NCBI GenBank assembly: GCA_964462595.1
Contig: CAYWXM010000032.1
Coordinates: forward strand, 22,465 to 86,464
DNA from: an uncultured Actinomycetota bacterium
GTDB lineage: Bacteria > Actinomycetota > Geothermincolia > Geothermincolales > RBG-13-55-18
Direction of reading: 5' to 3'
DNA length: 64,000 nt
Shown: positions 856-53,581 of the stretch, piece after piece
Layout of the letters: each line of letters begins with the position of its first letter
Numbering within the stretch: the stretch's first letter is position 1
Translations under genes and position numbers: made by a program
Notes under the pieces: generated by a model
Told to the model about the DNA's origin: nothing
Databases searched by the model: none
Seen by the model: only the letters and a program-made list of their open reading frames with translations

Positions 856-1749
856 CTAGTACCTAACCGGAGGGATAAATACCTGCTCCCTGTGCCACCT
901 TATGTAAAAAATATCCGGGCTTAGTTCCTTGCTATAGGGCTCCCTGATGGGCTTATCCTTGAACTCTAAAAACCATTCCCTGAAATGATGATATCCATAG
1001 AGTTCTGCCGAAACGAGGAGTCGAAGATCATCATCCAAACCTATCGCTCCTCTGTCCAAGGCTTTATGGTGCAGCGTGCATAAAGCCAGCCCGTTCTGCA
1101 CAATGTCTGGGCCGCCTGCTTGATGCCACTTAATATGCGCTGCCTCCAAGCCTAAATCGATATTGCCCAATCTTAGGTCGCAACCACAGACTGCACATCT
1201 ATGCTCATATGCGCGGATAACTTCATCGCGGAATCTAGGATCTCTCGTACTTATAAACCCAGTCTTTTCCAGAGAAAGGCCAATATCATTGATTATGTCT
1301 TCATGAAGGGAGGACGGAAAGTGAGCGTTTAGCAGCGATAGAGCTATCTCGGCACGGAAGTCTTTATTCTCCTTGAGGAAGTCGTATATTTCACTGGTGA
1401 AGCCACCCGTTGCTTTCTTTTCTAGCAACTCTGATCTCACAGGATTATTACTTCCTTTCCGAAAATCAATATCGCCCTCGTGTGCAACCTCCCATATGCC
1501 ATCATTCTGCAACCTCCAGAAGGGTTGTTCTGGATGCTGCGATTTCCTTTTTGGGCCATACCTATCCAATAGTTCTGTTAATAGCCCCTCTATTTCGGCA
1601 AAAGGTGCCAATCTTTCAAGCTGTTGTTCTATTCTCGCCAAAGCTATAAGAAGAAGGAGGGGTTTATGGGGAGCCCTTTCATCGCCTCTCTTCCAGATAT
1701 TTATCTGGGAGATCTTTTCCTTCAGCTCATCCTTTGAAATAGCGTACAT
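856..1749 (-). CDS. HNH endonuclease (HNH_2-type, CAVCG...AHIKW...LCTLHH) fused to an N-terminal ~190-aa putative modified-DNA reader domain; type IV restriction component
   Basis: C-terminal HRCAVCGCDL...AAHIKWHQAGGPDIVQNGLALCTLHHKALD is a classic HNH zinc-finger nuclease motif. The N-terminal domain (APHKPLLLLIALARIEQ...YGPKRKSQHPEQPFWRLQNDGIWEV) resembles the sensor domains of ScoMcrA/SprMcrA-like enzymes. It is co-oriented immediately downstream of the McrB/McrC-like genes. Confidence 0.8.
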   Translation of the reverse strand: MYAISKDELKEKISQINIWKRGDERAPHKPLLLLIALARIEQQLERLAPFAEIEGLLTELLDRYGPKRKSQHPEQPFWRLQNDGIWEVAHEGDIDFRKGSNNPVRSELLEKKATGGFTSEIYDFLKENKDFRAEIALSLLNAHFPSSLHEDIINDIGLSLEKTGFISTRDPRFRDEVIRAYEHRCAVCGCDLRLGNIDLGLEAAHIKWHQAGGPDIVQNGLALCTLHHKALDRGAIGLDDDLRLLVSAELYGYHHFREWFLEFKDKPIREPYSKELSPDIFYIRWHREQVFIPPVRY

Positions 1750-1826
1750 GTTTCTGTCATCCTGATTCTACAAAGCAGCCTTCCCGTATAAGTTTAGCAA
1801 ACTGGCCAATTTCATAGTGACACTTC

Positions 1827-4361
1827 CTAATCTTTTTCCTTATCAATACTTGACTTAGTTCGTTCACATACCTGTTTTATTGTCTGTTCCGCATTTGGTT
1901 GATACACATCACCTGAAGAAGCATGCCTGATCATAAAACCCGCACTGCCCTTGTATTGAACGATTACATCGCCAAGCACGAAAACCGCCCTGCCCCTTGG
2001 CTCATGTCCCTTCTTTTCTGCAGGCGTTCCTGGAACGATACTGAAATCCAAACCGGCCGCTTTTAATCCATCATAAAGACGCCATTCAGGCTCAGTTTCT
2101 AAAAATAGTCCTCTCAACTCTCTTGCTCTCTGTAGAGCAAGAAGTGATGTCCATCGATTACGTGAAAAGCGCACGCCTCTCCCATTTATACCCCGATTCT
2201 CAATAGATGGAGTAAGTTCCTTTATTTCGCCAAGATAGTAGACCACCTGGAGTTCATCCTCTTTTCTTCCAAGTGCCCACGGTGTTGAGATATCCTTGCG
2301 CCTTAAAACGTCGATTCTTTCAACTGGCGCACAATAGGCAACAGCTCCAGGTTTGCGCAGCGAAGCAGGTAAATATATTGCTAACCAGCGAGTCAGGAAC
2401 TGGAGTCTCTGTGTGTGGGTAAGAGGCGTATAATAGCGGCGCTCCTTCATTATCCAGTCCAAATGCACTTGTGCATCGGCTTTAAGGGTTCCTACCAATA
2501 CCACCTCTTTTGACGCCTCCCGCCATGAACGCAACTTCTCATATGTGACATGAGGTATGGCTCGTTCCGCAATAGACCAACCGCTTTGACGTAATATGCC
2601 CCTAAGCCATTCCTCTACATGATCCATTTCAGTTGGAAGGAACGGTAATGCACCTATACCCAACCTCTCTAGCGATTTCCACAACCTACTCTTAGTAAAT
2701 TCCCTATCTCTGTCCACGTATGGAAAAAGCGCTGCTCCTTCCACTACAGTTCTATTAAATCTATCCGATCGTGTTTCGTCATCATTTGTATCCTCGAGTA
2801 TCGCATCACGATAACGATGTAATACATTTATTGCATCTAGCGGTGGGCCTGGCGCTCCAAATTGTTCCAAATATTTCGCCGAATTATTAATCCTATATTT
2901 CGCGTCAAGGATGAGCCTAACCTCAGGCCATTCGGAATCATGCAAAGCGATTACTATATCGGGTTTCTGTGGAAGTACATAGCTATCGCCGGAAAATGTA
3001 GGGTTATAGATAACCTCGATGCTTCGTGATTCATCTATAACGAAAGGAATGCGTTGCGCTCGCCCTTTTTGCAGCTGCACCTGGATTCCATTCTGTTGAA
3101 CTTTTAATATGCGCTCTACCGGCACCCTTACGCCTAACACTTGAGCCAGCATCCTTACGATAGAAAGATAACACCAGTATTCATAAAGCGTGTGAATCTG
3201 TTTTAAAGAAAGTGACAAGCCGCCCCCACCAACCCTTAAGCCCAATCGTAGTTTAATGCAAGCGTGATAAGCTTCTCGATAGCCAGGTGCATTCTGCAGC
3301 TTCAGTGACACAAACCCTGGAGCCGGAAAACCCATAGCTGCTGCTATTGGCTCAATCGCCTCAAGCCTGCTGATTTGTTCTTTAAGGTTGCTTATTTCCT
3401 CTAGTGTATGGGCCCTCCTCGCAGGAATTTCAGCCCCTTCGGCAATTTCTACGCGCCTCTTCTCCTCTTCGTATATCTCAGCCAGTCTTTTTCTTACTTG
3501 TGCCAGTTGTGCCGCTATCCAACGGTGTTCCTGTGTGTCCAGCGTTGGCAGAGCGCGGTTTTCAGGAAGCTTGCTTCGCATGGCTAATCCATTTCGTGTA
3601 AGCACTCTTTGCCCAGCTCCCTTTCCTTGCATTACATAGCGAAAGACCGCTGCATCAGGCTTTCGCAAGCGTTCAAGTCTGGTCGGCAACCTCTCTCTCG
3701 AGAGTTCCCTCTGAGGATGCTTCTCGATATAGCGTAAACCGCGTTCAAGATCGCCCATAATATTGCGAAGCAATAACAACCATTCCAACCTTGTGGGAAT
3801 CGCTTCTCTTCTCGTGAAGCCCATTTGAAATGTTGATTGAAGATATTCAAGCACAAGCGCAGTAACGATGCCCTGAAGATCTGCAAGGATTGCTTCGTAA
3901 TCGGATGTATAGTCGAGTTTGCTTGGGAATACCTCTATCTCAAAATCGAATTCAGGCCTACCCCCTATTAAGACATTAAACAGGCTCCTTCCTATTTGTC
4001 CGCCGAAGTTTATTACCCCGTATAGTGCCCTTCCTTGATCATCTTTGCTTAAGTCTCTTACGATCAAAGGATCGCGATGTCTCATCTCTATCTTTTCTGA
4101 TACTTTGCTGCGCAGAAACACCTTATATTGGGTTTCTTCAAAGAGATGTGGGCCAATCTCGCTATCGACCATCTCCGAGACCTGAGGTTGGAAATTCTCA
4201 TTAAGCCTTTTTACGCTTATTTCTGCGCCGACTCTGCGCAGCTTAACCGATAACCTGCCTGGAATATTGCTCATTTCAATCGGAAGGCTATCCGGCAGCG
4301 TGGCTAGGCTGCTCCAAATCAGCAATGATCTGTCTGTTTCTATGCGGAATAGCTCACCCAT
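1827..4361 (-). CDS. McrC-like nuclease subunit (DUF2357 N-terminal region plus DUF524-like PD-(D/E)xK core) with a ~280-aa C-terminal extension of unknown function
   Basis: PD-(D/E)xK signature PDIVIALHD...EVRLILDAKYR. It starts 6 nt after the stop of the McrB-like gene (translational coupling). 844 aa is far longer than canonical McrC. Confidence 0.75.
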   Translation of the reverse strand: MGELFRIETDRSLLIWSSLATLPDSLPIEMSNIPGRLSVKLRRVGAEISVKRLNENFQPQVSEMVDSEIGPHLFEETQYKVFLRSKVSEKIEMRHRDPLIVRDLSKDDQGRALYGVINFGGQIGRSLFNVLIGGRPEFDFEIEVFPSKLDYTSDYEAILADLQGIVTALVLEYLQSTFQMGFTRREAIPTRLEWLLLLRNIMGDLERGLRYIEKHPQRELSRERLPTRLERLRKPDAAVFRYVMQGKGAGQRVLTRNGLAMRSKLPENRALPTLDTQEHRWIAAQLAQVRKRLAEIYEEEKRRVEIAEGAEIPARRAHTLEEISNLKEQISRLEAIEPIAAAMGFPAPGFVSLKLQNAPGYREAYHACIKLRLGLRVGGGGLSLSLKQIHTLYEYWCYLSIVRMLAQVLGVRVPVERILKVQQNGIQVQLQKGRAQRIPFVIDESRSIEVIYNPTFSGDSYVLPQKPDIVIALHDSEWPEVRLILDAKYRINNSAKYLEQFGAPGPPLDAINVLHRYRDAILEDTNDDETRSDRFNRTVVEGAALFPYVDRDREFTKSRLWKSLERLGIGALPFLPTEMDHVEEWLRGILRQSGWSIAERAIPHVTYEKLRSWREASKEVVLVGTLKADAQVHLDWIMKERRYYTPLTHTQRLQFLTRWLAIYLPASLRKPGAVAYCAPVERIDVLRRKDISTPWALGRKEDELQVVYYLGEIKELTPSIENRGINGRGVRFSRNRWTSLLALQRARELRGLFLETEPEWRLYDGLKAAGLDFSIVPGTPAEKKGHEPRGRAVFVLGDVIVQYKGSAGFMIRHASSGDVYQPNAEQTIKQVCERTKSSIDKEKD

Positions 4362-4367
4362 GGTTGT

Positions 4368-6188
4368 TCACAACCAGTACGAAGTGTAACCCTCCGAAAG
4401 CAACCGTTCTAGCATCAAGCAAAGTTTAGCAGCCAACCTTGGATACTGGCTGTCGACAATCGCTGATGGTCTCCCTGTGCTGTTCCAATCATTCAAGAAC
4501 TGACGCGCTTCATCTTCAAGCTTGAACGGCTCACCACCACTAGCCCATCCAAGCAGACCAAACACTACTCGGTTTATTGCTTCGCTGCCCCCTATTATTC
4601 TAGGCAATATCTTCATTTGTAGGACGAGGTCTAGCGGATCCACCCCGTTTCCTTCCAAATCTCTAAATGAATTAATAATCTCCATGCTGTGTAACAAGAA
4701 CAGAGCAACCTCATCCCTGGTCCTGTATCCAACCTGCAATTGTGCAGGAGACAATAGCCTGTTAATCGCCTGCAGAGCGGTAATGGCACGCTCAACCTCT
4801 GATCTCTCTTTCTCCTTAAGATCCCCTAAATCTGAAAGCATGATTGCACGCGGATACCAGAACCCTATAGGCCATGTAGTTGCTCTTACAGCCTCAGATT
4901 GTTGTGAATTCTCCCATTTATCAAGATAGATTTCAGATAGCTCAATCGTGAAAGCTCGGTCCAAGACTTTACGGCTGAACCCATGTGCGCTTTCATCCAT
5001 ATTAACTGTGCCTACCAGAGCCAAATTGGGTGGAATGACAACCTCCCCCCATTCGGCCTCCTCTTCCTTCAATGTCTGCCCGAGAAGCTGAATGCTTGCA
5101 TACCCACCATTCGTTTCTGGCCGGCGGTCTTCAATTCTACTTAGAACTTCAGCGAAATACTGCTCCACTCGCGCCAAATTCATTTCATCTATAATACAGA
5201 CCCAATAACGATCTCCATTCTCCATTGCCTCACGCGCTATCTCGAGCACCGGACCTGGGCGAAAATCTCCTTGGAGGTCTGTATAACCAAGTACATCTGA
5301 ACTGTCGGTCCAATCAGGCCTGACGGAGACTAGCCTACTTACGCCTGCCGTTGCATCAGCAACGAGTCTCGGTAGCTTGGATTTTCCTGTTCCAGTTATG
5401 CCGGCAAGGATTATAAATGGCTTGGTCCGAAGAGCAGTAATATACTGAGCAACCTGCCAGGGCTCGTAAATGAACCCACGATTATTAATGTAAGCGATAA
5501 GGTCCTCCAGGGATTGTTGTTTATCGAATCCAGGTTTTAGTGGTTCAACATCCTCGTCTTTAAAGCTTTCCACCGGCACCTCCAGCTGTCTTGATTCCAG
5601 ATACCCATCGTAAACATCTAGTAAGTAGTCAATATCCGCGATGATTTCTTCGTCTCGTGGCACCGAGCCTTTTTCGTATAGCTTATATGCAACCGTTGAA
5701 TACTCGTATTCCTTCCCCAAGCCTTTCGCAGCATGCAAAGAAATGCCGAAGTCTAACAGAAAGCCATTTGCTTCAGCATCAACACAGAATTCTTGGAGCT
5801 TTCGGGCGCGTTCTCTGAGGATTCTTCTAGCTTCTATGGTTCCGTGGGTTTTCTTTAGTGTCGTCACGCCCTGATTGAATGTCAGATATACGCCTCCCAT
5901 ATCCTCTTGAAACAAGAAGACTGGATATACTCCATTCTGAGTCGTCTTTGTCTCCCTTTCGTCCAAGAACGTAATCCACGGTATACTTGCCCAATTCCCT
6001 TGCCCCACGCTCCAATTCACTCGTAATGTGGGGCGGCTCTTTACCGAAGGGAGTTCAGATAATATTTCGCCGAGCTCTCTGAACTTCATCGAAACTGGCT
6101 GGCTTGAATTGAAAGCAGAGTTACTCCTGGATTCTAAATAATTTTGAAGAATCCATACGATGTCCTCGCTAATTCCCATCTCTTGCAA
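4368..6188 (-). CDS. mcrB: McrB-family GTPase: N-terminal MrcB_N/DUF3578-type DNA-binding domain plus AAA+ (AAA_5) motor
   Basis: N-terminus NWSVGQGNWASIPWITFLD (MrcB_N-like). Walker A ILAGITGTGKSKL, Walker B CIIDEMN. Strong RBS gaggagggg 7 nt before the ATG. Confidence 0.85.
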   Translation of the reverse strand: MQEMGISEDIVWILQNYLESRSNSAFNSSQPVSMKFRELGEILSELPSVKSRPTLRVNWSVGQGNWASIPWITFLDERETKTTQNGVYPVFLFQEDMGGVYLTFNQGVTTLKKTHGTIEARRILRERARKLQEFCVDAEANGFLLDFGISLHAAKGLGKEYEYSTVAYKLYEKGSVPRDEEIIADIDYLLDVYDGYLESRQLEVPVESFKDEDVEPLKPGFDKQQSLEDLIAYINNRGFIYEPWQVAQYITALRTKPFIILAGITGTGKSKLPRLVADATAGVSRLVSVRPDWTDSSDVLGYTDLQGDFRPGPVLEIAREAMENGDRYWVCIIDEMNLARVEQYFAEVLSRIEDRRPETNGGYASIQLLGQTLKEEEAEWGEVVIPPNLALVGTVNMDESAHGFSRKVLDRAFTIELSEIYLDKWENSQQSEAVRATTWPIGFWYPRAIMLSDLGDLKEKERSEVERAITALQAINRLLSPAQLQVGYRTRDEVALFLLHSMEIINSFRDLEGNGVDPLDLVLQMKILPRIIGGSEAINRVVFGLLGWASGGEPFKLEDEARQFLNDWNSTGRPSAIVDSQYPRLAAKLCLMLERLLSEGYTSYWL

Positions 6189-6402
6189 CCCCTCCTCATG
6201 ATATTTTTCTGGCAGCCCTGCTGATTACAATTCTATCATTCCTGCAATCGCATATTGGGGAGTCATGTGGAATGTGTAGGCGCTGACCTTTTGCTTAAAG
6301 ATTTAGCAACGCGCTTGGACCATTATCAACAAGGGCTCAATCATCGCTCGATTGAAGTATTACTTGTAACCACTTCGAGGCTGATATCTCTGAGGTGCGG
6401 GA

Positions 6403-7053
6403 ATGAGAATCGCGAAACAGACTGAAGACAGGATGGTGATCAAGGGCGATACCCGCCGGATAAAGAGGAACATCATATACGGCGCGATCATTGCCGCCGT
6501 CTTCATCGTCCCCATCATCATCTTTGCCTTCACGGAAAGCCTTAATATCACCAACATCACAGATATCATAAAAGGCCTCGTCTTCCCTGTTGTCGTCCTC
6601 GTTGGGGTATCTGCCGTTCTCTACAGGGAGAGCACTCGCGTCGTTATCGACAAGGCTAAGGACCGCCTGTCGGTCAAGTTACCTCTTAACAGGATTATAT
6701 CCGGGGCTTATCCACTCAAGGCCGTGAGCGAAGTAAGGCTCAGGCATCACGGTAATCCCTATTATTTCCCTAAGTTGAGCATTTTGCTGAATAACGATGA
6801 GGAGATCATTCTGAGCAGTGACGTGATGATTAGCATGCTCAAGCCGGGCTATCTATTCAAGGCGCCGCCCCTCTACGGGCATGTTATCAGGGAGCAGCAG
6901 CTTGCGATGGATATCGCCATATTCATGGGCGTTCCTTTTCGTGAGATAAAAGGCGGAGAGGTGACCTTCGGCCTGGACCAGGCGGACAAGGATGCGACCT
7001 GTTCGGAAGAAGCTGAAGAGAAGGAAGGGAAGGTTGACGATCAGGAAGGGTAA
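6403..7053 (+). CDS. Hypothetical membrane protein (two predicted TM helices, acidic C-terminal tail)
   Basis: Hydrophobic stretches IIYGAIIAAVFIVPIIIFAF and LVFPVVVLVGVSAVLY. C-terminus SEEAEEKEGKVDDQEG. No known domain. Confidence 0.5.
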   Translation: MRIAKQTEDRMVIKGDTRRIKRNIIYGAIIAAVFIVPIIIFAFTESLNITNITDIIKGLVFPVVVLVGVSAVLYRESTRVVIDKAKDRLSVKLPLNRIISGAYPLKAVSEVRLRHHGNPYYFPKLSILLNNDEEIILSSDVMISMLKPGYLFKAPPLYGHVIREQQLAMDIAIFMGVPFREIKGGEVTFGLDQADKDATCSEEAEEKEGKVDDQEG

Positions 7054-7538
7054 CGGAGTTCTCCATGCTCTTCTGGCAGATTGGATGGAGGTGCTGCCTC
7101 TCTGAATACTCGAGATGCTCAGAGATTCCTCAGTACATGAATATAACGATGTAGAGCACCGCCAAGCCACAGATGAGATTCAGTGACGCGACAACAGCGA
7201 GAGCCAAGCGCCAGCTTCTTTCAGTTTTCCTGTTTATTGCCCATACACCAGTGAAAATCAGAAGGAACAGATTTCTTCCAGGTGATTTCTTCTGGAACCT
7301 CTCATAGTTGGGTCGAATATAGAAGAAGACTATTGGCGCCACAACAACCATTAAAAGATTGCGACAATAGCAAGTATTATTCGGTCCGCGCTCATATTGT
7401 TATTCCTAAACGTTCGAGCAGCCAGCTTTTTCTCTTTTGCTGGTCCTCGCACATATCCCAATCAGAGGATCTCCATGGGGCGGGATGGTGATCAGAAGCC
7501 TCCTTAAATAGATTGGAGTTAAAATGTCTCCTAGCCTA

Positions 7539-7949
7539 CTAGGATGTTGGTATTTGTTTTTCCGCCCATGAGAAGAATCGTTCAACCCGTTTCATTATGT
7601 CAGTCGACTCCTTTGCGGTACAGCTACGTGCCTCATATTCAACTATGCCTTTGAGCCTAAGTATCGCCTGCATCTGCCTGGCAGCCTTTGAGGCTTCCTC
7701 GGAATCTACAGTCTCCTCTAAATAGCCATGGGCTTGGTTGTGATCCTGGCCGATAAAATATTCTCCAGCGTACCTGATAGTCACTGCATTTGCCATCAGG
7801 ATAACAGCATGAACGGCATTTGATACGGCTGCATCCCATAGGCTGGCATCATGTGATAATTCCATTGCCTTGCGAAACTGAAATGCCTTTTCCTTGAACT
7901 TCTTGGCCTCAGCCTGCGTAGCTTTAGCTGTTCTCTGCTTCCTCACCAA
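7539..7949 (-). CDS. HEPN domain protein (toxin of a HEPN/MNT pair)
   Basis: R-x6-H motif (RKAMELSH). Abuts the upstream MNT gene by 2 nt. Confidence 0.7.
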   Translation of the reverse strand: MVRKQRTAKATQAEAKKFKEKAFQFRKAMELSHDASLWDAAVSNAVHAVILMANAVTIRYAGEYFIGQDHNQAHGYLEETVDSEEASKAARQMQAILRLKGIVEYEARSCTAKESTDIMKRVERFFSWAEKQIPTS

Positions 7950-7951
7950 GG

Positions 7952-8554
7952 TTATTGCTCCTTTCCATAGAGGAGCTTCCCTTCTGAAAGGATTTCTCTG
8001 GCCAATGGGTGCTCTCTTTGCTTCAATCGCTCGAGCTCATCGCAGGTATACAAGAGAATGTTCGTCCCGATGCGGTAGAGCCTGTACGCCTCCCTCTCGT
8101 TTTCTGCGATGACTTCCTCCACCTTTTCCTTGTCTGTCCCAGCCTTCAGGATCAGCGCCAGGTCGATATCGCTTGCTGGTGTATCTTCACCGCGTGCCAC
8201 ACTGCCAAAAACGTAAACGCTGATGATACACTGCTTGATGCCTTTGCCCAGAATCCCAACGAGATCATCGAGCAAGCTGGCTTCTTTCTCGAAAAGTGGC
8301 CTTAACAAGTCCTTGTAAAGAACGGTATCATCAGGTATCTCATAGACAGAGCTTCTTCCGACTGTCTTGCGTGATATTGCGCCCATATCCGCCAACGAAT
8401 CCAGTGCCCTGATACAGGTTGCATGATTCATATCGAGCTCTCTTGCTATCCCCCTGCCAGTAATAACCCTGGATGGGAATAGAACCAAGTGCCTGAGAAT
8501 GCGCACATTGTTCTTGTTGTGGAAAATATCATTTAATGGATTGTTCGTTCTCAT
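7952..8554 (-). CDS. HTH (winged-helix) plus minimal nucleotidyltransferase (MNT) domain protein; cognate antitoxin of the HEPN gene
   Basis: Motif YVFGSVARGEDTPASDIDLALIL. Start chosen at the internal ATG (MRTNNPLND...) with GGGTGA 5 nt upstream. An AT-rich promoter-like tract lies upstream. Confidence 0.7.
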   Translation of the reverse strand: MRTNNPLNDIFHNKNNVRILRHLVLFPSRVITGRGIARELDMNHATCIRALDSLADMGAISRKTVGRSSVYEIPDDTVLYKDLLRPLFEKEASLLDDLVGILGKGIKQCIISVYVFGSVARGEDTPASDIDLALILKAGTDKEKVEEVIAENEREAYRLYRIGTNILLYTCDELERLKQREHPLAREILSEGKLLYGKEQ

Positions 8555-8675
8555 CAGATCACCCGTATAATATACTATACATATGTATAAATTATTATAC
8601 ATTTACAAACTGACGTTTTCAATGACCAAGAGAGTGAATATTTGGAGCAACCACGGGGGGCGAATGGTAATCGAG

Positions 8676-8753
8676 CTAGCCTTCCTTGTCGATTATTTCC
8701 TGTATTTTGTCTCTTAACGGTGTTATATATTCAATAATATCCCTGTCTCTCAT
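8676..8753 (-). pseudogene. Truncated HepT (DUF86/HEPN) toxin remnant, 25 codons
   Basis: Minus-strand ATG overlaps the stop of the upstream MntA gene in the classic ATGA arrangement. Translation MRDRDIIEYITPLRDKIQEIIDKEG* resembles HepT N-termini but stops after 25 aa. Confidence 0.45.
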
Positions 8754-9070
8754 ACCGTTACCAACTCACTCAAGATGTTCTTACCGATATGGGGCTTCAA
8801 GGCCTTCCTGGAAACCAGGTCTACTTTTGATCCGAGAACGTCCGAAAGATGGTCTTCAAGGTCAATGAACTTGAAAAACCCAATAGGTTCGGAGAATTCA
8901 ACAAGAATATCTATATCGCTTGCCTCAACCTGCTCCCCTCTTGCAAACGAGCCGAAGATCCCTATCTCCTTGACCTTGAATTTTTCTGCTAGAAATGGCT
9001 TCTGCTCCAGCAATTTCGCTTTTATATCCTCTACTCCACCCATCACAATCTCCATCCGTGTCATACCCAT
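8750..9070 (-). CDS. Nucleotidyltransferase MntA-like antitoxin
   Basis: Motif GIFGSFARGEQVEASDIDILVEF. Exact start uncertain (several in-frame Met; TATAAT directly upstream of the first). Confidence 0.8.
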   Translation of the reverse strand: MGMTRMEIVMGGVEDIKAKLLEQKPFLAEKFKVKEIGIFGSFARGEQVEASDIDILVEFSEPIGFFKFIDLEDHLSDVLGSKVDLVSRKALKPHIGKNILSELVTV

Positions 9071-9332
9071 CTATATGGTAAATTATAGCTTATGCTGATG
9101 ACCTTGACTTAACTGGACCGCAGGAGGAGCCCTGGTCGTTTTCATTCTCAGCCCTTCGTCTTTCACCTCTTTCGTGGTCTTTATCCCCTATCATGTCCTT
9201 CAGAAGATATCTCTTCTGATCCCAACTATCAACGCGCGCAAGCCTGCATTTCCCGATTAAAACCCTGCATTGCGCGATCAGTGATAGCATATATCAGAGA
9301 GAGCCAGAACCTGGGATTTGGAGGTGTTTGAA

Positions 9333-9773
9333 GTGGGCAAAAAGAAGCCGCTGAAAGTAGACATCGGCGAGCTGACAGCGGCAATGAACTACGGCAATTA
9401 TGATATGGAGTACTACCTGGACATGGATACGGGAGAAGTCATACCCATATGCGACGATTACAGGTGCATGGAGGAATTGGCGGAGGTCTTTGAGGCAATT
9501 GAAAACGAGTCGGAACGATATTTGTACATAGATAAGGTGGAATCCTGGGATGCCTACCGTGATATGGAAAGATTCATCTTAACCGTCAAGGACGAGAGGC
9601 TGAAGAAGCTTCTTATCGTGGCTATCGACGGGAAGGGCGCTTTCTCCCGTTTCAGGAAAGTCATCTGTGAGTACCCGGAAGAAAATGACCGGTGGTTTGC
9701 CTTGAAAAGCGAAAAGGACAAGCGGAGAGCACTGGAATTCCTCGACGCAATCGGTGTCGAGCCCGTTGAATAG
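9333..9773 (+). CDS. UPF0158-like hypothetical protein
   Basis: ORF track starts at TTG 9318. GTG 9333 has GGAGGTG 6 nt upstream. The sequence KKPLKVDIGELTAAMNY... resembles UPF0158 family proteins (from memory). Confidence 0.55.
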   Translation: MGKKKPLKVDIGELTAAMNYGNYDMEYYLDMDTGEVIPICDDYRCMEELAEVFEAIENESERYLYIDKVESWDAYRDMERFILTVKDERLKKLLIVAIDGKGAFSRFRKVICEYPEENDRWFALKSEKDKRRALEFLDAIGVEPVE

Positions 9774-9822
9774 TCGTGTGGCTGCACTACCCGGCGACAC
9801 TTTTCATCCATGCTTTTGTGAT

Positions 9823-9898
9823 TGTCAGCCCCCGGGGGCTGACAGAGTTGTCTTACTTTTTATGACTTATTCAGTCATGCTATAGTAAGACTTAGTCA
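9823..9898. promoter_or_regulatory. Terminator/operator region between the UPF0158-like gene and the RHH/PIN module
   Basis: Perfect 22-bp palindrome tgtcagcccccgggggctgaca at 9823-9844. Nested inverted repeats gtcttact/agtaagac and atgact/agtcat, with repeated AGTCAT half-sites, lie immediately upstream of the antitoxin gene. Confidence 0.45.
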
Positions 9899-9919
9899 TA
9901 CGCGCGAAGGGAGGGCGTG

Positions 9920-10177
9920 ATGTCAAGGACGACAAGGACCATCACCATATCTCTTCCACCCCGCCTGCACGAGGAAGTCGAAAGGCTGGCACGTGAAGAG
10001 AACAAGACCAAGAGCGAGCTGTTCAGGGACATGATCAAGGTATACGGGGATTACCTGGACGAGAAGCGCGTGCTGCGACTCAGGCGTTTGGGCAAGGAAA
10101 GCGCAAAGAAATACGATATCCGTTCCGAGGAAGACATCGTCAAGCTGGTACACGAAGCACGAGGCATAAAGGAATAG
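9920..10177 (+). CDS. Ribbon-helix-helix (CopG/VapB-like) antitoxin
   Basis: RTITISLPPRLHEEVERLAREENKTKSELFRDMI is an RHH fold signature. Its stop lies 2 nt before the PIN gene. Confidence 0.75.
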   Translation: MSRTTRTITISLPPRLHEEVERLAREENKTKSELFRDMIKVYGDYLDEKRVLRLRRLGKESAKKYDIRSEEDIVKLVHEARGIKE

Positions 10178-10179
10178 CC

Positions 10180-10575
10180 TTGCACCGCGTGGTCTTCGAT
10201 ACCAACGTGCTTATTTCAGCCTTTATCTTCGGGGGCAATCCCGAGAGGCTTTTCGACCTTGCCCGCTTCGGGGAACTACGGCTCATCGTCTCACCCGACA
10301 TTCTCATGGAGTTCGCCTACGTCATGAAAGAGAAGTTCGCTTGGGCAGAAGACGATATTGCGGAGGCGATAAAGGCGATCGGCTACTCGTCGGAACTGGT
10401 TAGAACCACGCAGAAGCTGAAGTTGGTCATAGATGACGCCGACAATCGCATCCTCGAGTGCGCGCTTGAGGGAAACGCTGATTTCATCGTCTCCGGCGAT
10501 CATCATCTCCTCGATGTTGGGAGATTCCAGGATGTAAGGATCGTGCGGCCCAAGGCATTTCTGAGATTCCTCTAG
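10180..10575 (+). CDS. PIN-domain toxin (VapC-like, TIGR00305-like family)
   Basis: VVFDTNVLISA...IVSGDHHLL acidic PIN motifs. TTG start with AAAGGAA 5 nt upstream. Confidence 0.8.
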   Translation: MHRVVFDTNVLISAFIFGGNPERLFDLARFGELRLIVSPDILMEFAYVMKEKFAWAEDDIAEAIKAIGYSSELVRTTQKLKLVIDDADNRILECALEGNADFIVSGDHHLLDVGRFQDVRIVRPKAFLRFL

Positions 10576-16604: not shown

Positions 16605-17141
16605 CTCGATACACCTTTCCTTCCTCGTGATAACGGTACAGCAAATCGGCCCTTTGTCTTTCCTCGACCCCGATCGCCGTCAAACGCCTGGTAAGCTCCA
16701 GGAAATATCCATGTACAGCACCGCGACATCTTGGCTTATCGGGCAAGGTCTCCCTTATATACCTCCTGATGGAAAACCTACCCAACGGCGCGCGAGTTGA
16801 AACTCCCAGATCCTGGTTACTGCTTTTCCCGACAAATCCGCCAGCCATGCGGCAAGATGCTTCCCTCTTCGGTCCGGACAGGGTGGGCGCGAAGACCCCG
16901 TTTCACGGGGATGGCACAAAGGGCGTGCTTTCAGGTGGGGCTTTACGTTACTGATCTCGGCCCGGGGGAATACTATGTGCAGCGGATTTCGGCGTTAATG
17001 TGAGAGGCGCTCCCGCGCATAAAGCCGGAAGGGAAGCGCGCCGGTGCACGGCCTGGGCCTCGTCCGGCAAGGCGGGCACGACATTCCCGCCGCCGTCTTG
17101 CCGAACCTGTCGCATCGAGCGTTACCCACGGAGGTGATAGC

Positions 17142-17624
17142 ATGTCGAGGGAGAACAAGGTCCTGGGAGTAGGCGACAAGGCCCCGCATTTCGAGTTGAC
17201 CGACGCGGCCAGCGGAGAGGTGGTGAAGCTCTCCGACTTCGCGGGCCAGCCCATGATGATCTATTTCGGCCGGGGCACCTGGTGACCGCACTGCCGCGAG
17301 TATATGGGTCATATACAGGACATGTATCCGGAGCTCGAGAAGCGAGGGGTGAGGGTGCTGGTCGTCCTGGCCGAAAGGCTGCAGCACATCCGTGAATACC
17401 TCGAGGAGCATCCTTACCCCTTCCCCGTGCTTTCTGACATGTCACGCGAGGTGTCCAAGGAATACGGCGTTTACGTGCGGGTCAACTTCGAGTCGGTGCA
17501 CATCGCCCGCCCGTCCACCTTTATCCTCGACCCCGAGGGCATTATCAGGTACATCTTCGTAGCCAGCGTGCAGACGGAATACCCTGACGACTCCGGCATC
17601 TACGCGGTCATGGACGCCATGTAG
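17142..17624 (+). CDS. Peroxiredoxin/thioredoxin-fold protein with in-frame TGA (17283-17285) in a TW-U-PHC motif; candidate selenoprotein
   Basis: ATG 17142 with GGAGGTGA RBS. It reads MSRENKVLGVGDKAPHFELTD...MIYFGRGTW-TGA-PHCREYMGHIQDMYPE..., which is in-frame with ORF 17304..17624 (AhpC/TSA-like C-terminal half). Hairpin gtatatg-ggt-catatac at 17300-17316. Confidence 0.5.
17300..17316 (+). promoter_or_regulatory. Candidate bacterial SECIS-like hairpin (7-bp stem, GGU apical loop) 14 nt after the in-frame UGA
   Basis: Perfect inverted repeat gtatatg/catatac. The apical loop contains G and U, as in bSECIS elements. Confidence 0.4.
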
Positions 17625-36255: not shown

Positions 36256-37500
36256 CTAGTCCAGCAGGTTCTCCACGAAGTCGCGGATGCGCGTCTCCAC
36301 CTGGGTGCGGTCGTACCAGCGCGAGTCGGTGTGGTCGGCCTCGATGATCAGGGTCGGCTTGCTGGTGCGCTTGGTAAACTCCCTGGCGAGGTCGTACTGG
36401 CCCAGCGAGTAGGGCTTGCAGCTGCGGTTGGAGTGCATGACCATGCCGTCCACCGCGTAGCGCGTGGCCAGGCTCTCTATCTTGTCGGCCATCCTCTCCA
36501 GGTTGATGTTCAGATAGACCTCGGCGTATATCCTGGCCATGCTCTCAAGGGGCTTCTCCGCGTCCACGCCCTCGAAGGTCCAGGCGCTGGTGTAGGTGTC
36601 CGCCACCAGGCAGGTTTCCAGCTCCATGAATAAAGCACCCAGGTGGCGCATCTCGTACCACACCGGGATGTTGTCCCAGAGCAGGCGGTGCTTTTCGGAG
36701 GGCAGGATGCCGATGCCCTCCTCTATGCGCTGCTTCATCTCGTCCAGCAGCAACTGGTAGAAATCCACCACCTCCTGCGTGCCGCGCAGTGTGACGATGG
36801 GGGCCATGAGGATAAAAGCGTCAAAGCAGGTCATGGGCGCGGGCCGGTGCTCGCCGCAGGCGAGCACGTCCTTCCACAGGGCGGAGGCGAAAAGCGACTT
36901 GGCTGCCACCTCCATGAAGTGCTTCTCGTCGTAAGGTTTCCCGGTGATCTCTTCCAGGAAGCTCATGAATTCCTCCATCTGCCGCAGGGAATAATCGGCG
37001 GTGTGCTGGGGGAGTTCGCCCCGCACGAAGGGCGTGTCGTAGATGAACAGGGGCACGTCGAAGAAACGCGCCAGCTCCTCGTACCACTTGAAGACGGTAT
37101 CGCAGATATTGTTGCAGCAGACCAGGAAGGTGGGACGGGGCAGGCCGCCGATGGGCCCTCCCTTGGTGATGGCGCTGCCGATGTCGCCGCGCGCGTAGGA
37201 GCAGAGGTCGCGGGAGAAGCCGCGACCCTCGGCCACCTCGCACAGCTCCACGTTCATGTGCGCCGCGCCGCACATGGCGCCGTGGTTCTCGGGGTAGACG
37301 GGGATAACGTCGAAGGCGATGAGAGGCTCCACGGGACCGCCGCTGGTTATCCAGGCGATATGCCTGTCCGTGCCCTCCGCCGCCTTGGCCTCCATGTAGT
37401 ACTTGGTCATGAGGTCGCGCATGGCGGCGCCGGTCTTGATCTTGCGCCGTTCCTTGTCCGCCTGCTTGGCATCTTTTGCACCGCTGCCGTTGCCGTTCAT
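36256..37500 (-). CDS. 2-hydroxyacyl-CoA dehydratase family subunit (HgdB/BcrB-like)
   Basis: HGD-D family conserved cysteines. GGAGGGTGAG RBS. Confidence 0.75.
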   Translation of the reverse strand: MNGNGSGAKDAKQADKERRKIKTGAAMRDLMTKYYMEAKAAEGTDRHIAWITSGGPVEPLIAFDVIPVYPENHGAMCGAAHMNVELCEVAEGRGFSRDLCSYARGDIGSAITKGGPIGGLPRPTFLVCCNNICDTVFKWYEELARFFDVPLFIYDTPFVRGELPQHTADYSLRQMEEFMSFLEEITGKPYDEKHFMEVAAKSLFASALWKDVLACGEHRPAPMTCFDAFILMAPIVTLRGTQEVVDFYQLLLDEMKQRIEEGIGILPSEKHRLLWDNIPVWYEMRHLGALFMELETCLVADTYTSAWTFEGVDAEKPLESMARIYAEVYLNINLERMADKIESLATRYAVDGMVMHSNRSCKPYSLGQYDLAREFTKRTSKPTLIIEADHTDSRWYDRTQVETRIRDFVENLLD

Positions 37501-37523
37501 CTCACCCTCCTTAATTCAAGGGG

Positions 37524-37549
37524 TCAGGTCTTGTTTTTTGCATACTCCG
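37524..37549 (+). repeat. Copy of dispersed 26-bp repeat GGGGTCAGGTCTTGTTTTTTGCATAC
   Basis: Exact reverse-complement copy at 53529-53554. Related copy at 53436-53468. Confidence 0.8.
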
Positions 37550-37649
37550 GTATGTTCGCCGTTAATACCCATATGCTCGCTTACAAGCAGGGACTTTACC
37601 CAAGTTACCATATAATGGCATACAAGCATCAAAACATGGCCCCCTTGCC

Positions 37650-38783
37650 TTACACTCCGCTGATGGTCTCGATGAAAGCCTGCAGGCGGGTGCGGAGTTG
37701 ACCGCGCGAGAAGGATTGCAGCTCGTTCTCCAGCACCAGCGAGGGCACCTCGAGCTCTTCCATCAGCCGTCCCTTCATGTAAGGTATGTCGAAGAGGTGG
37801 GGCTCGCAGAAGGACTGCAGGAAGAAGACGACGCCCTTGGCGCCGCTGTCCCGCACCTGCCGCAGAAGGTGTTCCATGCGATCCTCGATGCTCTGTTGCT
37901 TGGCGGGGCAGTTCACCCTCCCCCACAAGCGCCTGGCCAGTGCCTCCTCGGGCGAATCCGCCTCGTCGACGTAGTTATCGAAGTAACGGTGGCCGCTGCA
38001 GAAGTCGTCGTCCACAACGTCCGCGCCCAGTTCGACGACGAGCTCCATGATGTCGGGGATGGTGCATACGCTGCCGCTCAGGAGGAGGGGCGTCCTGGCA
38101 TCGGCTTGCGGACTTCCCGCATCCAGCCCTTCCAGCAGCTCGTGCAGTAGCTCGTTGTGCTTCTCGCGGCGCATCCAGAACCCTGCGGTAATGACGGCGG
38201 TGGCGGACAGGCCGTCGATAACGCCATGGTTGGTTGCGCGCAACTTGTACAGGCGATCGGCCAGGCGCCGGTTGCGGTTGTAGACGTGTATGCTCTCGTT
38301 GAGGGCATCGTCCCAGATGTCCTCCCCCGTGTACTCCTCCACGCTGCGGCGGAAGCGTTTCACCTCCTCCACCACGAAGGGCAGGGAGGTATCCTCGCCC
38401 ATGCGGATGGGAAGCACCAGGTCTCCGTGGAAGGGGAAATTCGTGTTGCGGCGCCAGATGTCCGAGAGGCGCATCATGGTATCGCAGGTCTGCACGAAGA
38501 CCGCGCCTTCCAGGTAATCCAACTCGCCGGCGAGTGCCATGTCCAGGTCGGTGCGGGCAAGCGAGCAGCAATAGGTCTGGAGATATGCGTCAGAGTGTGT
38601 GAGAGAACGCACCGCGCCCATGAGGCGCACCGGAGTGAAGCCGGCTGCATGCAGGATCTCCTCCGGTGTGTAGGAACAGAACACTCCCATGGGTATCTCG
38701 CCTTCATCCCGGAGTTTCGCCATGTGCGGGTAGGGATCCCTCCATAATTCCAGGCTCTCGTCTATGATGGTCTGGACATCCAT
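37650..38783 (-). CDS. 2-hydroxyacyl-CoA dehydratase family subunit (HgdA/BcrC-like)
   Basis: HGD-D family. AAAGGAG RBS. Confidence 0.75.
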   Translation of the reverse strand: MDVQTIIDESLELWRDPYPHMAKLRDEGEIPMGVFCSYTPEEILHAAGFTPVRLMGAVRSLTHSDAYLQTYCCSLARTDLDMALAGELDYLEGAVFVQTCDTMMRLSDIWRRNTNFPFHGDLVLPIRMGEDTSLPFVVEEVKRFRRSVEEYTGEDIWDDALNESIHVYNRNRRLADRLYKLRATNHGVIDGLSATAVITAGFWMRREKHNELLHELLEGLDAGSPQADARTPLLLSGSVCTIPDIMELVVELGADVVDDDFCSGHRYFDNYVDEADSPEEALARRLWGRVNCPAKQQSIEDRMEHLLRQVRDSGAKGVVFFLQSFCEPHLFDIPYMKGRLMEELEVPSLVLENELQSFSRGQLRTRLQAFIETISGV

Positions 38784-39010
38784 GACGCTCCTTTCATACG
38801 CAGTGCCGTTCCCTCCGCCTTGAACGTTACATCTATTCTATCTATTGAAGGCACATATTACAGCATCAAGTGTCATTGCGAGGCGATGCTCACAGCGAAG
38901 CTGGCGCGAGCGGAACTAACGCAGGCGAGCGGCTCACGTCAATAACGGCGCGCCCGTAAAGCCGTTAACGCACGCATTTAACGAACGTATATAAGATCGG
39001 GACGGGGCTT

Positions 39011-39098
39011 ATATATACGCCCAGGCCGATTTCCGGGCGTGACCCCAAGGCCTATATATATACGCCCAGGCCGATTTCCGGGCGTGACCCCAAGGCCT
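39011..39098. repeat. Tandem direct repeat (2 x ~44 bp) tatatatacgcccaggccgatttccgggcgtgaccccaaggcc
   Basis: Each unit contains GGCCGATTTCCGGGCGTGACCCC. This is the reverse complement, with one mismatch, of the 25-mer at 12451 and 13646. Confidence 0.8.
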
Positions 39099-39109
39099 GG
39101 CAAGGCCGG

Positions 39110-39730
39110 TTAGTTGCCCTTCTTGCCGTTGCCGGCTCCGCCGCCGCCTCCAGGAGGAGCGGCGCCGGGTGGGTAGACCACGATAGCGGGGTCTGGGCAG
39201 GTGACGCAGGTGTTCTGGCAGGCTCCGCAACCCGTGCACTTCTCCGCGTTCACGTGGGGCCTGCCCCGGGAATCTATATCGATGGCCCCGTATGAGCAGC
39301 GCTCGTAGCATACCAGGCAGGCCTTGCCCTCGTTCCAGGCGATGCACTTGGAACGGTTTACCGCGGCCGTGCCGATGCGCACTTCATCATCGGCTGGCTC
39401 GCGTATCGCGCCTACCGGGCAGGCTTTCGCGCAAGCGCGGCCGCACAGCTCGAACTCGCACTTGCCCAGGGCGGGGTTGAGGCGAGGCGTCCACAGCTTG
39501 GCGGTGCCGAACTCCCTGCCCGCGGGCTCCAGGCAATTGGTAAGGCAGGCGCGCACGCATTCCCCGCAGCGCAGGCAGCGCGTGGCGAAAGCGGCTTCGT
39601 CCTGGGCTCCCGGCGGCCGCAGCAAAACGGAGCTGCCCTGGTCGCGCAGCAGGCCGTAGGCGAAAAGCGACGCGGTACCCGCCACTCCGATGGCCAGGAA
39701 ATCGCGGCGGCCTATCTTCAGATCTCGCAT
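39110..39730 (-). CDS. Tat-exported 4Fe-4S ferredoxin-type protein (NapG-like)
   Basis: Twin-arginine signal RRDFLAIGVAG. Multiple CxxCxxCxxxCP motifs. GGAGGAGG RBS. Confidence 0.8.
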   Translation of the reverse strand: MRDLKIGRRDFLAIGVAGTASLFAYGLLRDQGSSVLLRPPGAQDEAAFATRCLRCGECVRACLTNCLEPAGREFGTAKLWTPRLNPALGKCEFELCGRACAKACPVGAIREPADDEVRIGTAAVNRSKCIAWNEGKACLVCYERCSYGAIDIDSRGRPHVNAEKCTGCGACQNTCVTCPDPAIVVYPPGAAPPGGGGGAGNGKKGN

Positions 39731-40626
39731 ACTATCGCCTCCTCCGGGGTATCCTGCCCCCGCGGAGCTTTACCGGAGGCGAGCACCGCCGCCCCCATGA
39801 CTCGCAGCGACAGCGCTCCCACCTCGGGGCACGCGGCAACGCATTCTCCACACAGCGCGCAGTCGGCCATGAACAGACGGCCTGTCTTCCTGCTGTCCGC
39901 TACCTCGGTGATGCCGAAGGGGCAGGCGCAGACGCACTTGCCGCAGTGGGTGCAGGCGGCTTCGTCCTTTACCAGGGCCAAGGGGCTGGCCTTAGCGGGA
40001 AGGCGGGACCCGGCCATGCCCACCAGGGAGAGGGCGGCTCCCAAGGGGCACATCTCCTGGCACCAGAAGCGCGGCCCCACCACCACCGCCAGCACCGCCA
40101 GGGCGATAAAAAAGAATGGCACGCTGCCGAGGAGGACGGTGACCACCGCGCGATTGGCGATCACCAGCGGGTCGAAGATCCAGATCGCGTTTATGCCCAG
40201 CGCGAAAAGCAGTACGAGTATCCCCAGAAACACGTATTTGAGCCGGATGCGGCGGTCGCCAGCTCCTATGGTCCTGCCGAAGATATCCCTGGGGCGAAGG
40301 CGGGACAGCTTCCTTGCGCGCCTGTTCTCCAGCGAGGGCAGCATCTCGAAGGCGGAGCCCAGGGGGCAGATCCAGCCGCAGAAGAGGCGGCCGCTGAACA
40401 GGGTCAATCCCAGCAGTATCCAGGCGGGAAGCAGGTAGAGCCAGAGCCCGCTCTCCCACGCCGCCGTTATCCCCGCCAGCGGGTCCACGCGCAGGAAGAG
40501 GTTCTCGTCCAGCTTGGCGCTGGGCGGATAAGCCGCAGCCCATACCGTGACGACGAAAAGCGCCATGAAAGCTGTCTGCACGGCACGGCGCAGCCAGTGT
40601 ACGGCGCGGCGTCGGTCCTTTTTCAT
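39718..40626 (-). CDS. NapH/MauN-like integral-membrane iron-sulfur protein
   Basis: TM helices plus CGWICP and CxxCxxCxxxCP motifs. GGAGGTGA RBS. Confidence 0.8.
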   Translation of the reverse strand: MKKDRRRAVHWLRRAVQTAFMALFVVTVWAAAYPPSAKLDENLFLRVDPLAGITAAWESGLWLYLLPAWILLGLTLFSGRLFCGWICPLGSAFEMLPSLENRRARKLSRLRPRDIFGRTIGAGDRRIRLKYVFLGILVLLFALGINAIWIFDPLVIANRAVVTVLLGSVPFFFIALAVLAVVVGPRFWCQEMCPLGAALSLVGMAGSRLPAKASPLALVKDEAACTHCGKCVCACPFGITEVADSRKTGRLFMADCALCGECVAACPEVGALSLRVMGAAVLASGKAPRGQDTPEEAIVCEI

Positions 40627-41609: not shown

Positions 41610-41689
41610 CTCCTGCAAATAGATCACTCCTTGCGCCGATTATCGCATCCGCGGTTCCGCATGTCCTTGACGTGCGTCACCGCCGCTCC

Positions 41690-44017: not shown

Positions 44018-44035
44018 TTATCTACCTCCCTGGGG

Positions 44036-45133: not shown

Positions 45134-45142
45134 CATGCCCTC

Positions 45143-46267: not shown

Positions 46268-46473
46268 TTGCGCTCCTTCACTATCGGTTATCCGGGAGAC
46301 CGGGCCGGTACTGTATAGAGGAACCCCCTGCTTCACCGCTACCCTTTAACCGTCCTCCACCATGTTCTTCCCGTCTCCATCCGTTTCCCCGTGCATGCCC
46401 CGCGCGCGAGGCCGCGGTGTCTTGTCCGCCATAGCCTCTTTCCCGTCCGGCCGCAAATCGAAATCGACGCCGC

Positions 46474-47535: not shown

Positions 47536-47832
47536 TTTTCCCCCTTCGCGTCCCGCCCCTGCCTCGTGAACATTCCGCGCGACACGGGTTGCGCCGCCCG
47601 CCGGTCCCTGCGGCCGGCGGGCGACATCTAAACCCAGAATCGCCGTTTTCCGGCTCCCCGGGATGAGGTCCGGCCTGCGGCTTGTCCGCGCGCCGCAGTC
47701 TCCGTTATCCCCTCTTCCCGGATCCCGCCGATACTCTATCGCATCACCTCCTCGGCTCCCAGCCGGCGATGAGGCCGGCTTATCCGGATAGAAAACCGTT
47801 ATCGAACCCCGTACGAGCTCTCCGCTCCTCTC

Positions 47833-49476: not shown

Positions 49477-49480
49477 ACCC

Positions 49481-50701: not shown

Positions 50702-50704
50702 CTT

Positions 50705-53554: not shown

Positions 53555-53581
53555 ATAGACGCATAGGTGGAGGTGTGAGAA

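Follow-up and report, generated by a model that had tools for sequence, protein, structure and literature searches.

An in-frame TGA followed by a conserved hairpin in a putative AhpC/TSA-fold selenoprotein gene of uncultured Actinomycetota

What does a TGA codon mean when it lies within the active-site motif of a redox protein gene? It could end translation, it could be a lesion, or it could encode selenocysteine (Sec). The question is raised by a locus in a 64-kb stretch of DNA from an uncultured Actinomycetota bacterium, which was analyzed as a whole and is called the window below. A first-pass annotation, which used only the sequence of the window, had proposed a selenoprotein gene here. 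Our analysis strongly favors this answer: 17142-17624 on the forward strand is very probably one intact gene that encodes a cytoplasmic oxidoreductase of 160 residues with a thioredoxin fold, and its UGA-48 is most likely read as Sec.

The features of the locus are listed in Table 1. The start codon, the ribosome-binding site, and the TGA within a GRGTW-U-PHC motif all lie where the first-pass annotation had placed them, and the read-through frame of 160 codons is continuous with the downstream open reading frame, as it had also stated. The TGA is the single interruption between the ATG and the stop codon (TAG, 17622-17624), and its context on translation is IYFGRGTW-stop-PHCREY. The Pfam AhpC-TSA profile aligned over its full length (1-124/124) straight across the TGA (E = 3.5e-34), and a Redoxin (PF08534) match also spans this codon (E = 7.5e-27). 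GGAGG or GGAGGT was also found upstream of the start codon in the related loci L001-L005, L007, and L008.

Table 1. Features of the putative selenoprotein gene and their positions in the window
Feature	Position	Strand	Remarks
Putative selenoprotein gene, 160 codons + TAG	17142..17624	+	Probable Sec at codon 48; AhpC/TSA-fold "Prx-like" thiol:disulfide oxidoreductase
Shine-Dalgarno-like GGAGGTGA	17131..17138	+	3 nt before ATG; GGAGG core 6 nt from ATG
In-frame TGA, putative Sec codon (U48)	17283..17285	+	Opens the W-U-P-H-C redox motif
TGC = Cys51, presumed resolving residue of UxxC	17292..17294	+	Alignment to 2cx3 BCP and 3c71 ResA
Bacterial SECIS core (predicted)	17300..17316	+	Stem 17300-17306/17310-17316, GGU loop 17307-17309, within codons 53-58 (E-Y-M-G-H-I)
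C-terminal fragment of ~100-108 aa, the gene callers' truncated "peroxiredoxin"	17304..17624	+	No separate gene

In a coding-signal scan of the 64-kb window, the TGA at codon 48 was the sole TGA with genuine coding signal on both sides. Two other TGA candidates from the same scan were antisense to real genes. TGA is the ordinary stop codon of 16 of the 38 window genes and the commonest stop there; therefore, the genetic code is not reassigned, and a genome-wide reassignment of TGA was ruled out. The gene stands alone at its locus. A consensus scan for promoters and terminators around the gene found none, and comparison of the loci gave no conserved neighbor or partner gene, the contexts being different in every locus compared.

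The read-through product was assigned to a family by profile searches. PF00578 (AhpC-TSA) scored 117.9 bits against a cut-off of 26 with the full profile covered, and AhpC-TSA_2 (PF13911) scored 30.1 bits against a cut-off of 27. None of the curated NCBIfam models, including the selenoprotein-aware ones, reached its cut-off for the window protein. ResA ranked first (71 bits vs 170) and BCP second (64.7 vs 140), both below cut-off, and further scores were obtained with SelL_rel_redox (50.1 vs 120), PrxU (46.6 vs 270), DsbE (29.9 vs 123), WAxxUGC_long (24.9 vs 300), and redoxin_TUGYCR (22.6 vs 100). The best sequence matches among solved structures were the ResA proteins of B. subtilis and B. 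anthracis (E 2.7e-14 and 1.7e-13, respectively). In the ResA CxxC, the first Cys aligns with U48 and the second with C51, and P124 is the cis-Pro.

The fold was examined with an AlphaFold model built on a Cys form, P0001, which is 59-62 % identical to the window protein and served as its proxy. The model had a pLDDT of 90.9. Its nearest folds were those of BCP/PrxQ (TM 0.85, rmsd 1.6 Å to S. solfataricus Bcp4), compared to a TM of 0.64-0.69 with ResA. When the sequence is aligned to BCP, C51 takes the column of the peroxidatic Cys and U48 that of the conserved Thr/Ser in the PxxxT/SxxC motif of peroxiredoxins (Prx). The column of the catalytic Arg holds P124, and the invariant R123 adjoins it, one residue off. 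The N-terminus (MSRENKVLGVGDK...) is hydrophilic, without a signal peptide or membrane anchor. The model suggests that the window protein is a PrxQ/BCP-like scaffold with a ResA/TlpA-like W-C/U-x-x-C center. The first-pass description as AhpC/TSA-like is supported by the full Pfam match, but its other half, peroxiredoxin, does not hold in the canonical sense since the Prx PxxxT/SxxC motif is absent and the center is a ResA-like W-U-x-x-C. By PF00578 and the UxxC motif, the protein appears to match the "Prx-like thiol:disulfide oxidoreductase" selenoproteins, whose prototype is WP_010940744.1.

Searched against the protein collection, the read-through product had relatives of two kinds, full-length Cys proteins and short ones. 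The full-length relatives (~23) are ~160 aa long, with one extended to 208 aa, have the motif GTWCPTC, and are 50-62 % identical to the query. The short relatives (~45) are 88-112 aa long, most of them 105-108 aa, and at 59-73 % identity they are closer than the full-length ones. They mostly begin at a Met six codons past the window TGA, and a few begin further downstream. The Cys homologues align a Cys exactly at the TGA, where the first reading of the sequence had expected the CxxC of a thioredoxin fold.

Codon 48 was then compared across 69 orthologous loci, comprising the window and 68 loci fetched from species-representative genomes and metagenomes. It is TGA in 48 of the 69 loci and TGC or TGT in the other 21. 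The TGA forms make up 40 distinct sequences from independent assemblies (MAGs and metagenomes) and have amino-acid identities of 47-73 %. They include eight Actinomycetota MAGs, two of which are named Candidatus Solincola (class Candidatus Geothermincolia), and QZKE01, JABLXL01 (GCA_013178005.1), JACIXB01, JAFGDU01, JAQVFR01, JACVJD01, JACVJF01, CAYPZH01, and the JGI contig Ga0643564_0000067 are among the carriers. The orthologues can be aligned collinearly over residues 1-160. The 47 codons that precede the TGA are likewise collinear across the TGA forms; they are conserved and differ by many synonymous changes, and frameshifts or further stops are absent from these forms. pN/pS was 0.38 upstream of the TGA (codons 2-47) and 0.33 in a 60-codon block downstream, with pS at ~0.6, which is near saturation. 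Both flanks of the TGA are under purifying selection. W-U-P-x-C is nearly invariant across the TGA forms; Cys51 is replaced by A, S, or T (motif U-P-N-A/S/T) in five of these loci (L099, L100, L101, L106, and L110).

The second conserved element is a perfect 7-bp hairpin, GTATATG-GGT-CATATAC, which starts 14 nt past the TGA and has its loop 21 nt past it. The first-pass annotation had located it exactly. Each of the 40 distinct TGA forms has the hairpin at the same place; in the main Cys clade, this site is taken by an unrelated sequence (AAGTGGATGAGCGAGATC). Synonymous sites are frozen in four of the five hairpin codons (Y-M-G-H-I; Fisher p 1e-15 to 1e-29). TAT is used in 41/41 cases in the hairpin compared to 84/271 elsewhere in the same genes, and the corresponding counts are 33/34 and 37/403 for GGT, 37/39 and 25/103 for CAT, and 40/40 and 57/352 for ATA. 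These are rare A/T-ending codons, set in a GC3 background of ~0.8-0.9, and the flanking Arg, Pro, Gly, and His codons vary freely.

RNAalifold, unprompted, gave the identical hairpin as the consensus structure, and 99.6 % of the cells in the hairpin alignment are paired. A compensatory change from an A-U to a G-C pair (GUAUGUG...CACAUAC) was found in L002, L004, and L052, and G-U wobble changes at two pairs were found in L078 and L099. The loop is GGU, GUC (six distinct sequences), or GGC. Strict covariation is thin: a change on both sides was seen in only one pair, a count that 56 of 500 shuffles also reached. Therefore, the RNA argument rests mainly on the conservation of synonymous sites. 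A conserved lower SECIS stem was found neither in the RNAalifold consensus nor by folding of the window sequence.

Seen in the single sequence, the hairpin is only moderate evidence for something other than chance. Shuffled sequences fold as well as the 60 nt past the UGA (z = +0.62), and the frequency in the window of perfect hairpins with a stem of 7 bp or more and a G-first loop is 0.00054 per nt, which corresponds to ~0.012 expected per SECIS zone after a TGA. The comparative data, on the other hand, put the TGA and the hairpin together far beyond chance. The bSECIS model, as given in PMC13188914, has a loop of 3-9 nt, an upper stem of 4-16 bp, a G in loop positions 1-2, and a distance of 16-37 nt between the UGA and the loop, along with an MFE of -7.5 kcal/mol or lower. 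The hairpin, with a G-first loop of 3 nt (GGU), a stem of 7 bp, and a spacing of 21 nt, lies within this geometry. This fit and its occurrence in all the distinct TGA forms bear out the earlier suggestion that it is compatible with a bacterial SECIS. Counted from the UGA, 43 nt gave an MFE of -8.6 kcal/mol and 53 nt one of -10.4 kcal/mol, and the hairpin is part of both MFE structures; at 63 nt, a competing fold wins. The hairpin on its own is weak, with values of -3.7 kcal/mol (17-mer) and -5.3 kcal/mol (27 nt). It would be even weaker in hot springs, from which some of the samples come.

From this combination of features, we infer that SelB binds the hairpin and that Sec is inserted at UGA-48. 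Another possible explanation is that the UGA is read through without Sec, with a suppressor, a near-cognate tRNA, or a tRNA with a UCA anticodon inserting Cys, Trp, or another residue and the hairpin acting as a generic stimulator. The short and AU-rich nature of the hairpin would suit such a stimulator, and the Sec machinery of this lineage was not located in the local neighborhoods that were scanned. In the window, no tRNA-Sec was detected with ARAGORN or Rfam, and Pfam scans of 39 window genes gave no SelA, SelB, or SelD. The selA, selB, selD, and tRNA-Sec genes were likewise missing from 1.44-1.59 Mb of related loci (ARAGORN, motif, and tblastn searches), which are local neighborhoods and uninformative for whole genomes, and from ~6 kb and ~10 kb beyond the two window ends (~16 kb of public contigs, again local sequence). 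For comparison, a Candidatus Solincola MAG has a size of ~2.8 Mb. Since only local neighborhoods were covered, the absence of sel genes is uninformative rather than negative. A SelA profile made from the E. coli (8uzw) and A. aeolicus (3w1h) proteins was also searched against the protein collection, and essentially all of the 120 matches listed were from Enterobacteriaceae.

Further selenoprotein genes were sought with an in-frame TGA coding scan of 412 kb of flanking sequence, which found the target in 16 loci and gave no other credible hit. One candidate, L003:19863, was rejected as a second selenoprotein because it is an ordinary stop between two same-frame genes. Selenium is not mentioned in PMC12917137 or PMC7325909, which deal with Candidatus Solincola and related Actinomycetota, and the text of BSepDB gave no match for Actinomycetota or Prx-like.

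Several findings speak against read-through without Sec. The recoded site is the nucleophilic Cys of a CxxC motif and is Cys in the homologues, which is the signature of a Sec/Cys pair. The geometry of the hairpin, its G-first loop, and the 21-nt spacing fit the model of a SelB-dependent bSECIS. A general suppressor would be costly where TGA is the commonest ordinary stop, as it is in the window. Also, Sec decoding has been documented in other Actinomycetota, according to published work and a table of HGT events. Because the sel genes and tRNA-Sec were not located, we leave a small probability for read-through without Sec, and consider it improbable.

It is less probable still that the locus holds a split gene, in which a 47-residue peptide ends at the TGA and translation restarts at ATG 17304 to give a 106-residue protein without a redox motif. 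This ATG lies six codons past the TGA and is what annotation pipelines call. In a collection of ~15 billion proteins, every TGA form that was retrieved is entered either as a 47-49-aa orphan or as a truncated protein of 88-112 aa named "peroxiredoxin" or "redoxin", and in annotated contigs the gene is split into a 47-49-aa ORF and a 100-108-aa ORF. However, the ATG is not conserved as a start codon, as it is replaced by GTG in L002, L004, and L052 and by ATA, which is not a start codon, in L078. It has no Shine-Dalgarno motif before it and sits within the 5' arm of the conserved hairpin. In a split gene, the thioredoxin fold would be severed right at the active site; W-U-P-x-C, however, is nearly invariant, and the Cys homologues are single polypeptides. 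The call at 17304 is better explained as a systematic annotation error, which is corrected here: the gene is cut in two in every public annotation examined.

The weakest alternative is that the TGA is a lesion in a former Cys codon, either in a pseudogene with a nonsense mutation or through an error of sequencing or assembly. It can point to TGA being one substitution from TGC/TGT, to the existence of Cys forms, and to the truncated gene calls. It is excluded, along with a strain-specific lesion, by the conservation of the TGA and both coding flanks across independent and diverged loci, which show near-saturated synonymous change and lack frameshifts or extra stops. The hairpin, too, goes with the TGA forms, being absent or degraded in the Cys forms. 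The divergence of the TGA forms also excludes their being one clonal contaminant. The first-pass annotation had itself preferred Sec over a pseudogene, and the 48 TGA loci, the pN/pS values, and the Cys aligned at the TGA favor the same choice. It had also looked to orthologues for a stop or frameshift lacking conserved sequence downstream; the stop in the orthologues is always TGA and is followed by conserved coding sequence and the same hairpin.

With UGA-48 read as Sec, the protein and its mRNA could work as follows. The 17-nt hairpin in the coding sequence, GUAUAUG-GGU-CAUAUAC, would be the bacterial SECIS and would recruit SelB-GTP-Sec-tRNA(Sec) to a ribosome with the UGA in its A site, so that Sec is delivered at UGA-48. 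The nucleophile would be Sec48, which is exposed as the N-terminal member of the UxxC in W-U-P-H-C; it would attack an oxidized substrate, which may be a disulfide or else a peroxide or sulfenic acid. Cys51 would then resolve this intermediate by forming a selenenylsulfide with Sec48, which a thioredoxin-type reductant would reduce. The five TGA-form loci that kept Sec and lost Cys51 argue that Sec rather than Cys51 is the essential catalytic residue.

The Cys forms offer some hints about the evolution of the gene. P0001 (L135), the form used for the structural model, is a Cys form near the TGA clade and comes from the MAGs JACVIY01 and JACVIZ01. Its codon 48 is TGT, which is one step from TGA, and the sequence that follows, GTATATGGCCCATCTGC (GTATATG-GCC-CATCTGC), looks like a decaying relic of the hairpin. 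The TGT together with the decayed hairpin suggests that the hairpin is kept only together with TGA, and across the loci it appears to be maintained only where TGA is. A rough NJ tree has the U-P-N-x clade as its first branch and joins the Cys clade to the main U-P-H-C clade as a sister group; this rooting, by distant outgroups, is not robust. Both TGA clades carry the same hairpin, which suggests that Sec and the SECIS arose once. Under the NJ rooting, weak as it is, the Cys clade would be a Sec-to-Cys reversion, with P0001 as an independent second case. Sec-to-Cys reversion is rare in bacteria according to a 2026 review.

These observations can be joined into one reading, which we offer tentatively and consider rather unlikely to hold in all its parts. 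The gene would belong to an uncatalogued, lineage-wide subfamily in the Actinomycetota clade that contains Candidatus Solincola. Sec and an unusually small, AU-rich SECIS of 17 nt with a nearly invariant sequence would be ancestral in it, the Cys forms would be secondary reversions, and the U-P-N-A/S/T forms would use a one-selenol mechanism. If this were true, P0001 would be a reversion caught in the act, and the near absence of covariation would mean that the SelB of this lineage reads the sequence of the stem besides its shape.

Sec at UGA-48 would imply Sec decoding in an anaerobic lineage of Actinomycetota that includes Candidatus Solincola. The compact 17-nt SECIS, along with its natural variants (A-U to G-C, GGU to GUC, and G-C to G-U), would be convenient for work on SelB-SECIS recognition. 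The matched hairpin relic in the putative Cys revertant would, in the same way, be convenient for studies of Sec/Cys exchange.

The Prx-like UxxC proteins rank with the most frequent selenoproteins predicted in bacteria. The gene described here is of a well-known kind and changes no concept; what it adds is a distinct subfamily of uncultured Actinomycetota. In CDD, cd02970 (PRX_like2) comprises CxxC proteins in which the second Cys corresponds to the Prx peroxidatic Cys, and this agrees with the alignment of C51. Prx-like thiol:disulfide oxidoreductase selenoproteins with PF00578 and a UxxC or UxxU motif are listed by Kryukov and Gladyshev (2004), as tabulated in PMC13188914, and the "Prx-like 1" family of the GOS selenoproteome is pfam00578 with UxxC (PMC2398784). 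The window protein resembles the Prx-like selenoproteins in its AhpC-TSA domain, its UxxC motif with Sec first, its Cys homologues, and a predicted SECIS directly downstream within the coding sequence. What sets it apart is a characteristic signature (GRGTW-U-PHC ... YGVYVRVNFES ... ARP) and a predicted SECIS of its own that hardly varies. The subfamily occurs in uncultured Actinomycetota akin to Candidatus Solincola, of the class Candidatus Geothermincolia, and the L099-L110 subclade of the family has U-P-N-A/S/T, a UxxS-type motif.

The likenesses to other thioredoxin-fold proteins are divided between two groups. With ResA, TlpA, and CcmG (PDB 1st9, 3c71, and 4nmu), the window protein shares the G-T-W-C-x-x-C in register and the cis-Pro at P124. 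In contrast to the extracytoplasmic ResA and TlpA, it has no signal peptide or anchor, and compared to ResA it has ~10 extra residues (VRVNFESVHIA). BCP/PrxQ (PDB 3hjp, 2cx3, and 5epf) are closest in overall fold, as the model of P0001 was nearer to BCP than to ResA, and C51 takes the position of their peroxidatic Cys. Unlike Prx, the window protein lacks PxxxT/SxxC, with Sec at the T/S position and R44 at the Pro position (-7). PrxU has Sec in place of the peroxidatic Cys (TxxU), whereas here Sec would occupy the preceding position (UxxC).

The predicted SECIS can be compared with that of E. coli fdhF. Both are short stem-loops in the coding sequence 3' of the UGA, with a G-first loop within 16-37 nt. 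In the consensus, and in most of the variants as well, the tetranucleotide across the loop is GGUC, the exceptions being L099 and L100 (GGCU), and the minimal fdhF SECIS also contains GGUC. Unlike that of fdhF, the stem at this locus is made only of A-U pairs, save for two terminal G-C pairs, and it does without a bulged U and a conserved lower stem.

The stem of the putative SECIS hairpin (17300-17316) was found to be conserved in its sequence itself, beyond mere pairing, in the window and at all orthologous loci with TGA at codon 48. It is nearly all A-U, in contrast to a host genome of about 60 % GC, and at 37 °C the calculated stability of the 17-mer hairpin comes to only -3.7 kcal/mol. 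Hot springs are among the source samples.

The divergent neighbor upstream of the redoxin selenoprotein gene is the 968-aa adh_short/S15/PepX_C fusion gene, as seen in the table. On the 3' side of the orthologue, a tRNA-Lys(CTT) gene was found in three MAGs, at a distance of 86 nt in L001 (L001:7792-7868) and about 3-4 kb in L003 (L003:13429-13505) and L004 (L004:11175-11251). This tRNA gene is absent from the 64-kb window, a further sign that the neighborhood of the selenoprotein gene is fluid.

Another in-frame TGA, at L003:19863, has coding signal on either side and was rejected as a selenoprotein candidate. It is an ordinary stop that separates a membrane-protein gene from a same-frame AIG2/GGCT-like gene (VFVYGTLKPG).

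Elsewhere in the window, 856-10575 is a defense and toxin-antitoxin island with GC3 below that of the remainder. Seven FAD/NAD(P)-binding (amine-oxidase/DAO-like) oxidoreductase paralogues are densely clustered around GlcD/E/F-like genes at 42683-55084, and the Pfam match of several of them is confined to the N-terminal dinucleotide-binding motif. Genes marking anaerobic metabolism lie on the minus strand at 36256-41627 and 56377-58197: two HGD-D subunits (2-hydroxyacyl-CoA dehydratase/benzoyl-CoA reductase-type), two polyferredoxins, DUF362 and a tungsten-type aldehyde:ferredoxin oxidoreductase.

Features of the window (Pfam is the source of the gene labels within 856-10575)
Feature	Position	Strand	Label source
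ScoMcrA-like sulfur-binding domain + HNH nuclease	856-1749	-	Pfam
McrC-like DUF2357/PDDEXK_7	1827-4361	-	Pfam
McrB-like MrcB_N/AAA_5	4368-6188	-	Pfam
HEPN, paired with next	7539-7949	-	Pfam
Nucleotidyltransferase, paired with HEPN	7952-8602	-	Pfam
Second nucleotidyltransferase	8750-9070	-	Pfam
RHH, paired with PIN	9920-10177	+	Pfam
PIN, paired with RHH	10180-10575	+	Pfam
adh_short (short-chain dehydrogenase) + S15 X-Pro dipeptidyl-peptidase/CocE-like hydrolase + PepX_C fusion, 968 aa	13698-16604	-	
HAD phosphatase + trehalose-phosphatase + complete GH65 phosphorylase (N, central, C domains) fusion, 1324 aa	25704-29678	-	
FAD_binding_4, GlcD/E/F-like	47833-49476		
CCG domain, GlcD/E/F-like	49481-50701		
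FAD_binding_4, GlcD/E/F-like	50705-52102		

P0001, a Cys-form orthologue near the TGA clade (L135:3001-3510 and L136:453-962, from MAGs JACVIY01 and JACVIZ01), carries TGT where Sec would be encoded, and its hairpin, GTATATGGCCCATCTGC, has partly decayed; this looks like a relic of Sec-to-Cys reversion. The genes upstream of it (AFOR, a methyltransferase and a 143-aa ORF) have the same order as in window 56377-59620, and the redoxin gene is, therefore, differently placed in L135 and L136 than in the window.

A subclade of the same family (L099, L100, L101, L106 and L110) keeps TGA and the hairpin, with U-P-N-A/S/T replacing U-P-H-C about 141 nt into each match, e.g., at L099:10142. The hairpin of L099 and L100 has G-U in place of the closing G-C pair and a GGC loop. 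With the resolving Cys gone, the predicted products of this subclade are one-selenol variants of the UxxS type.
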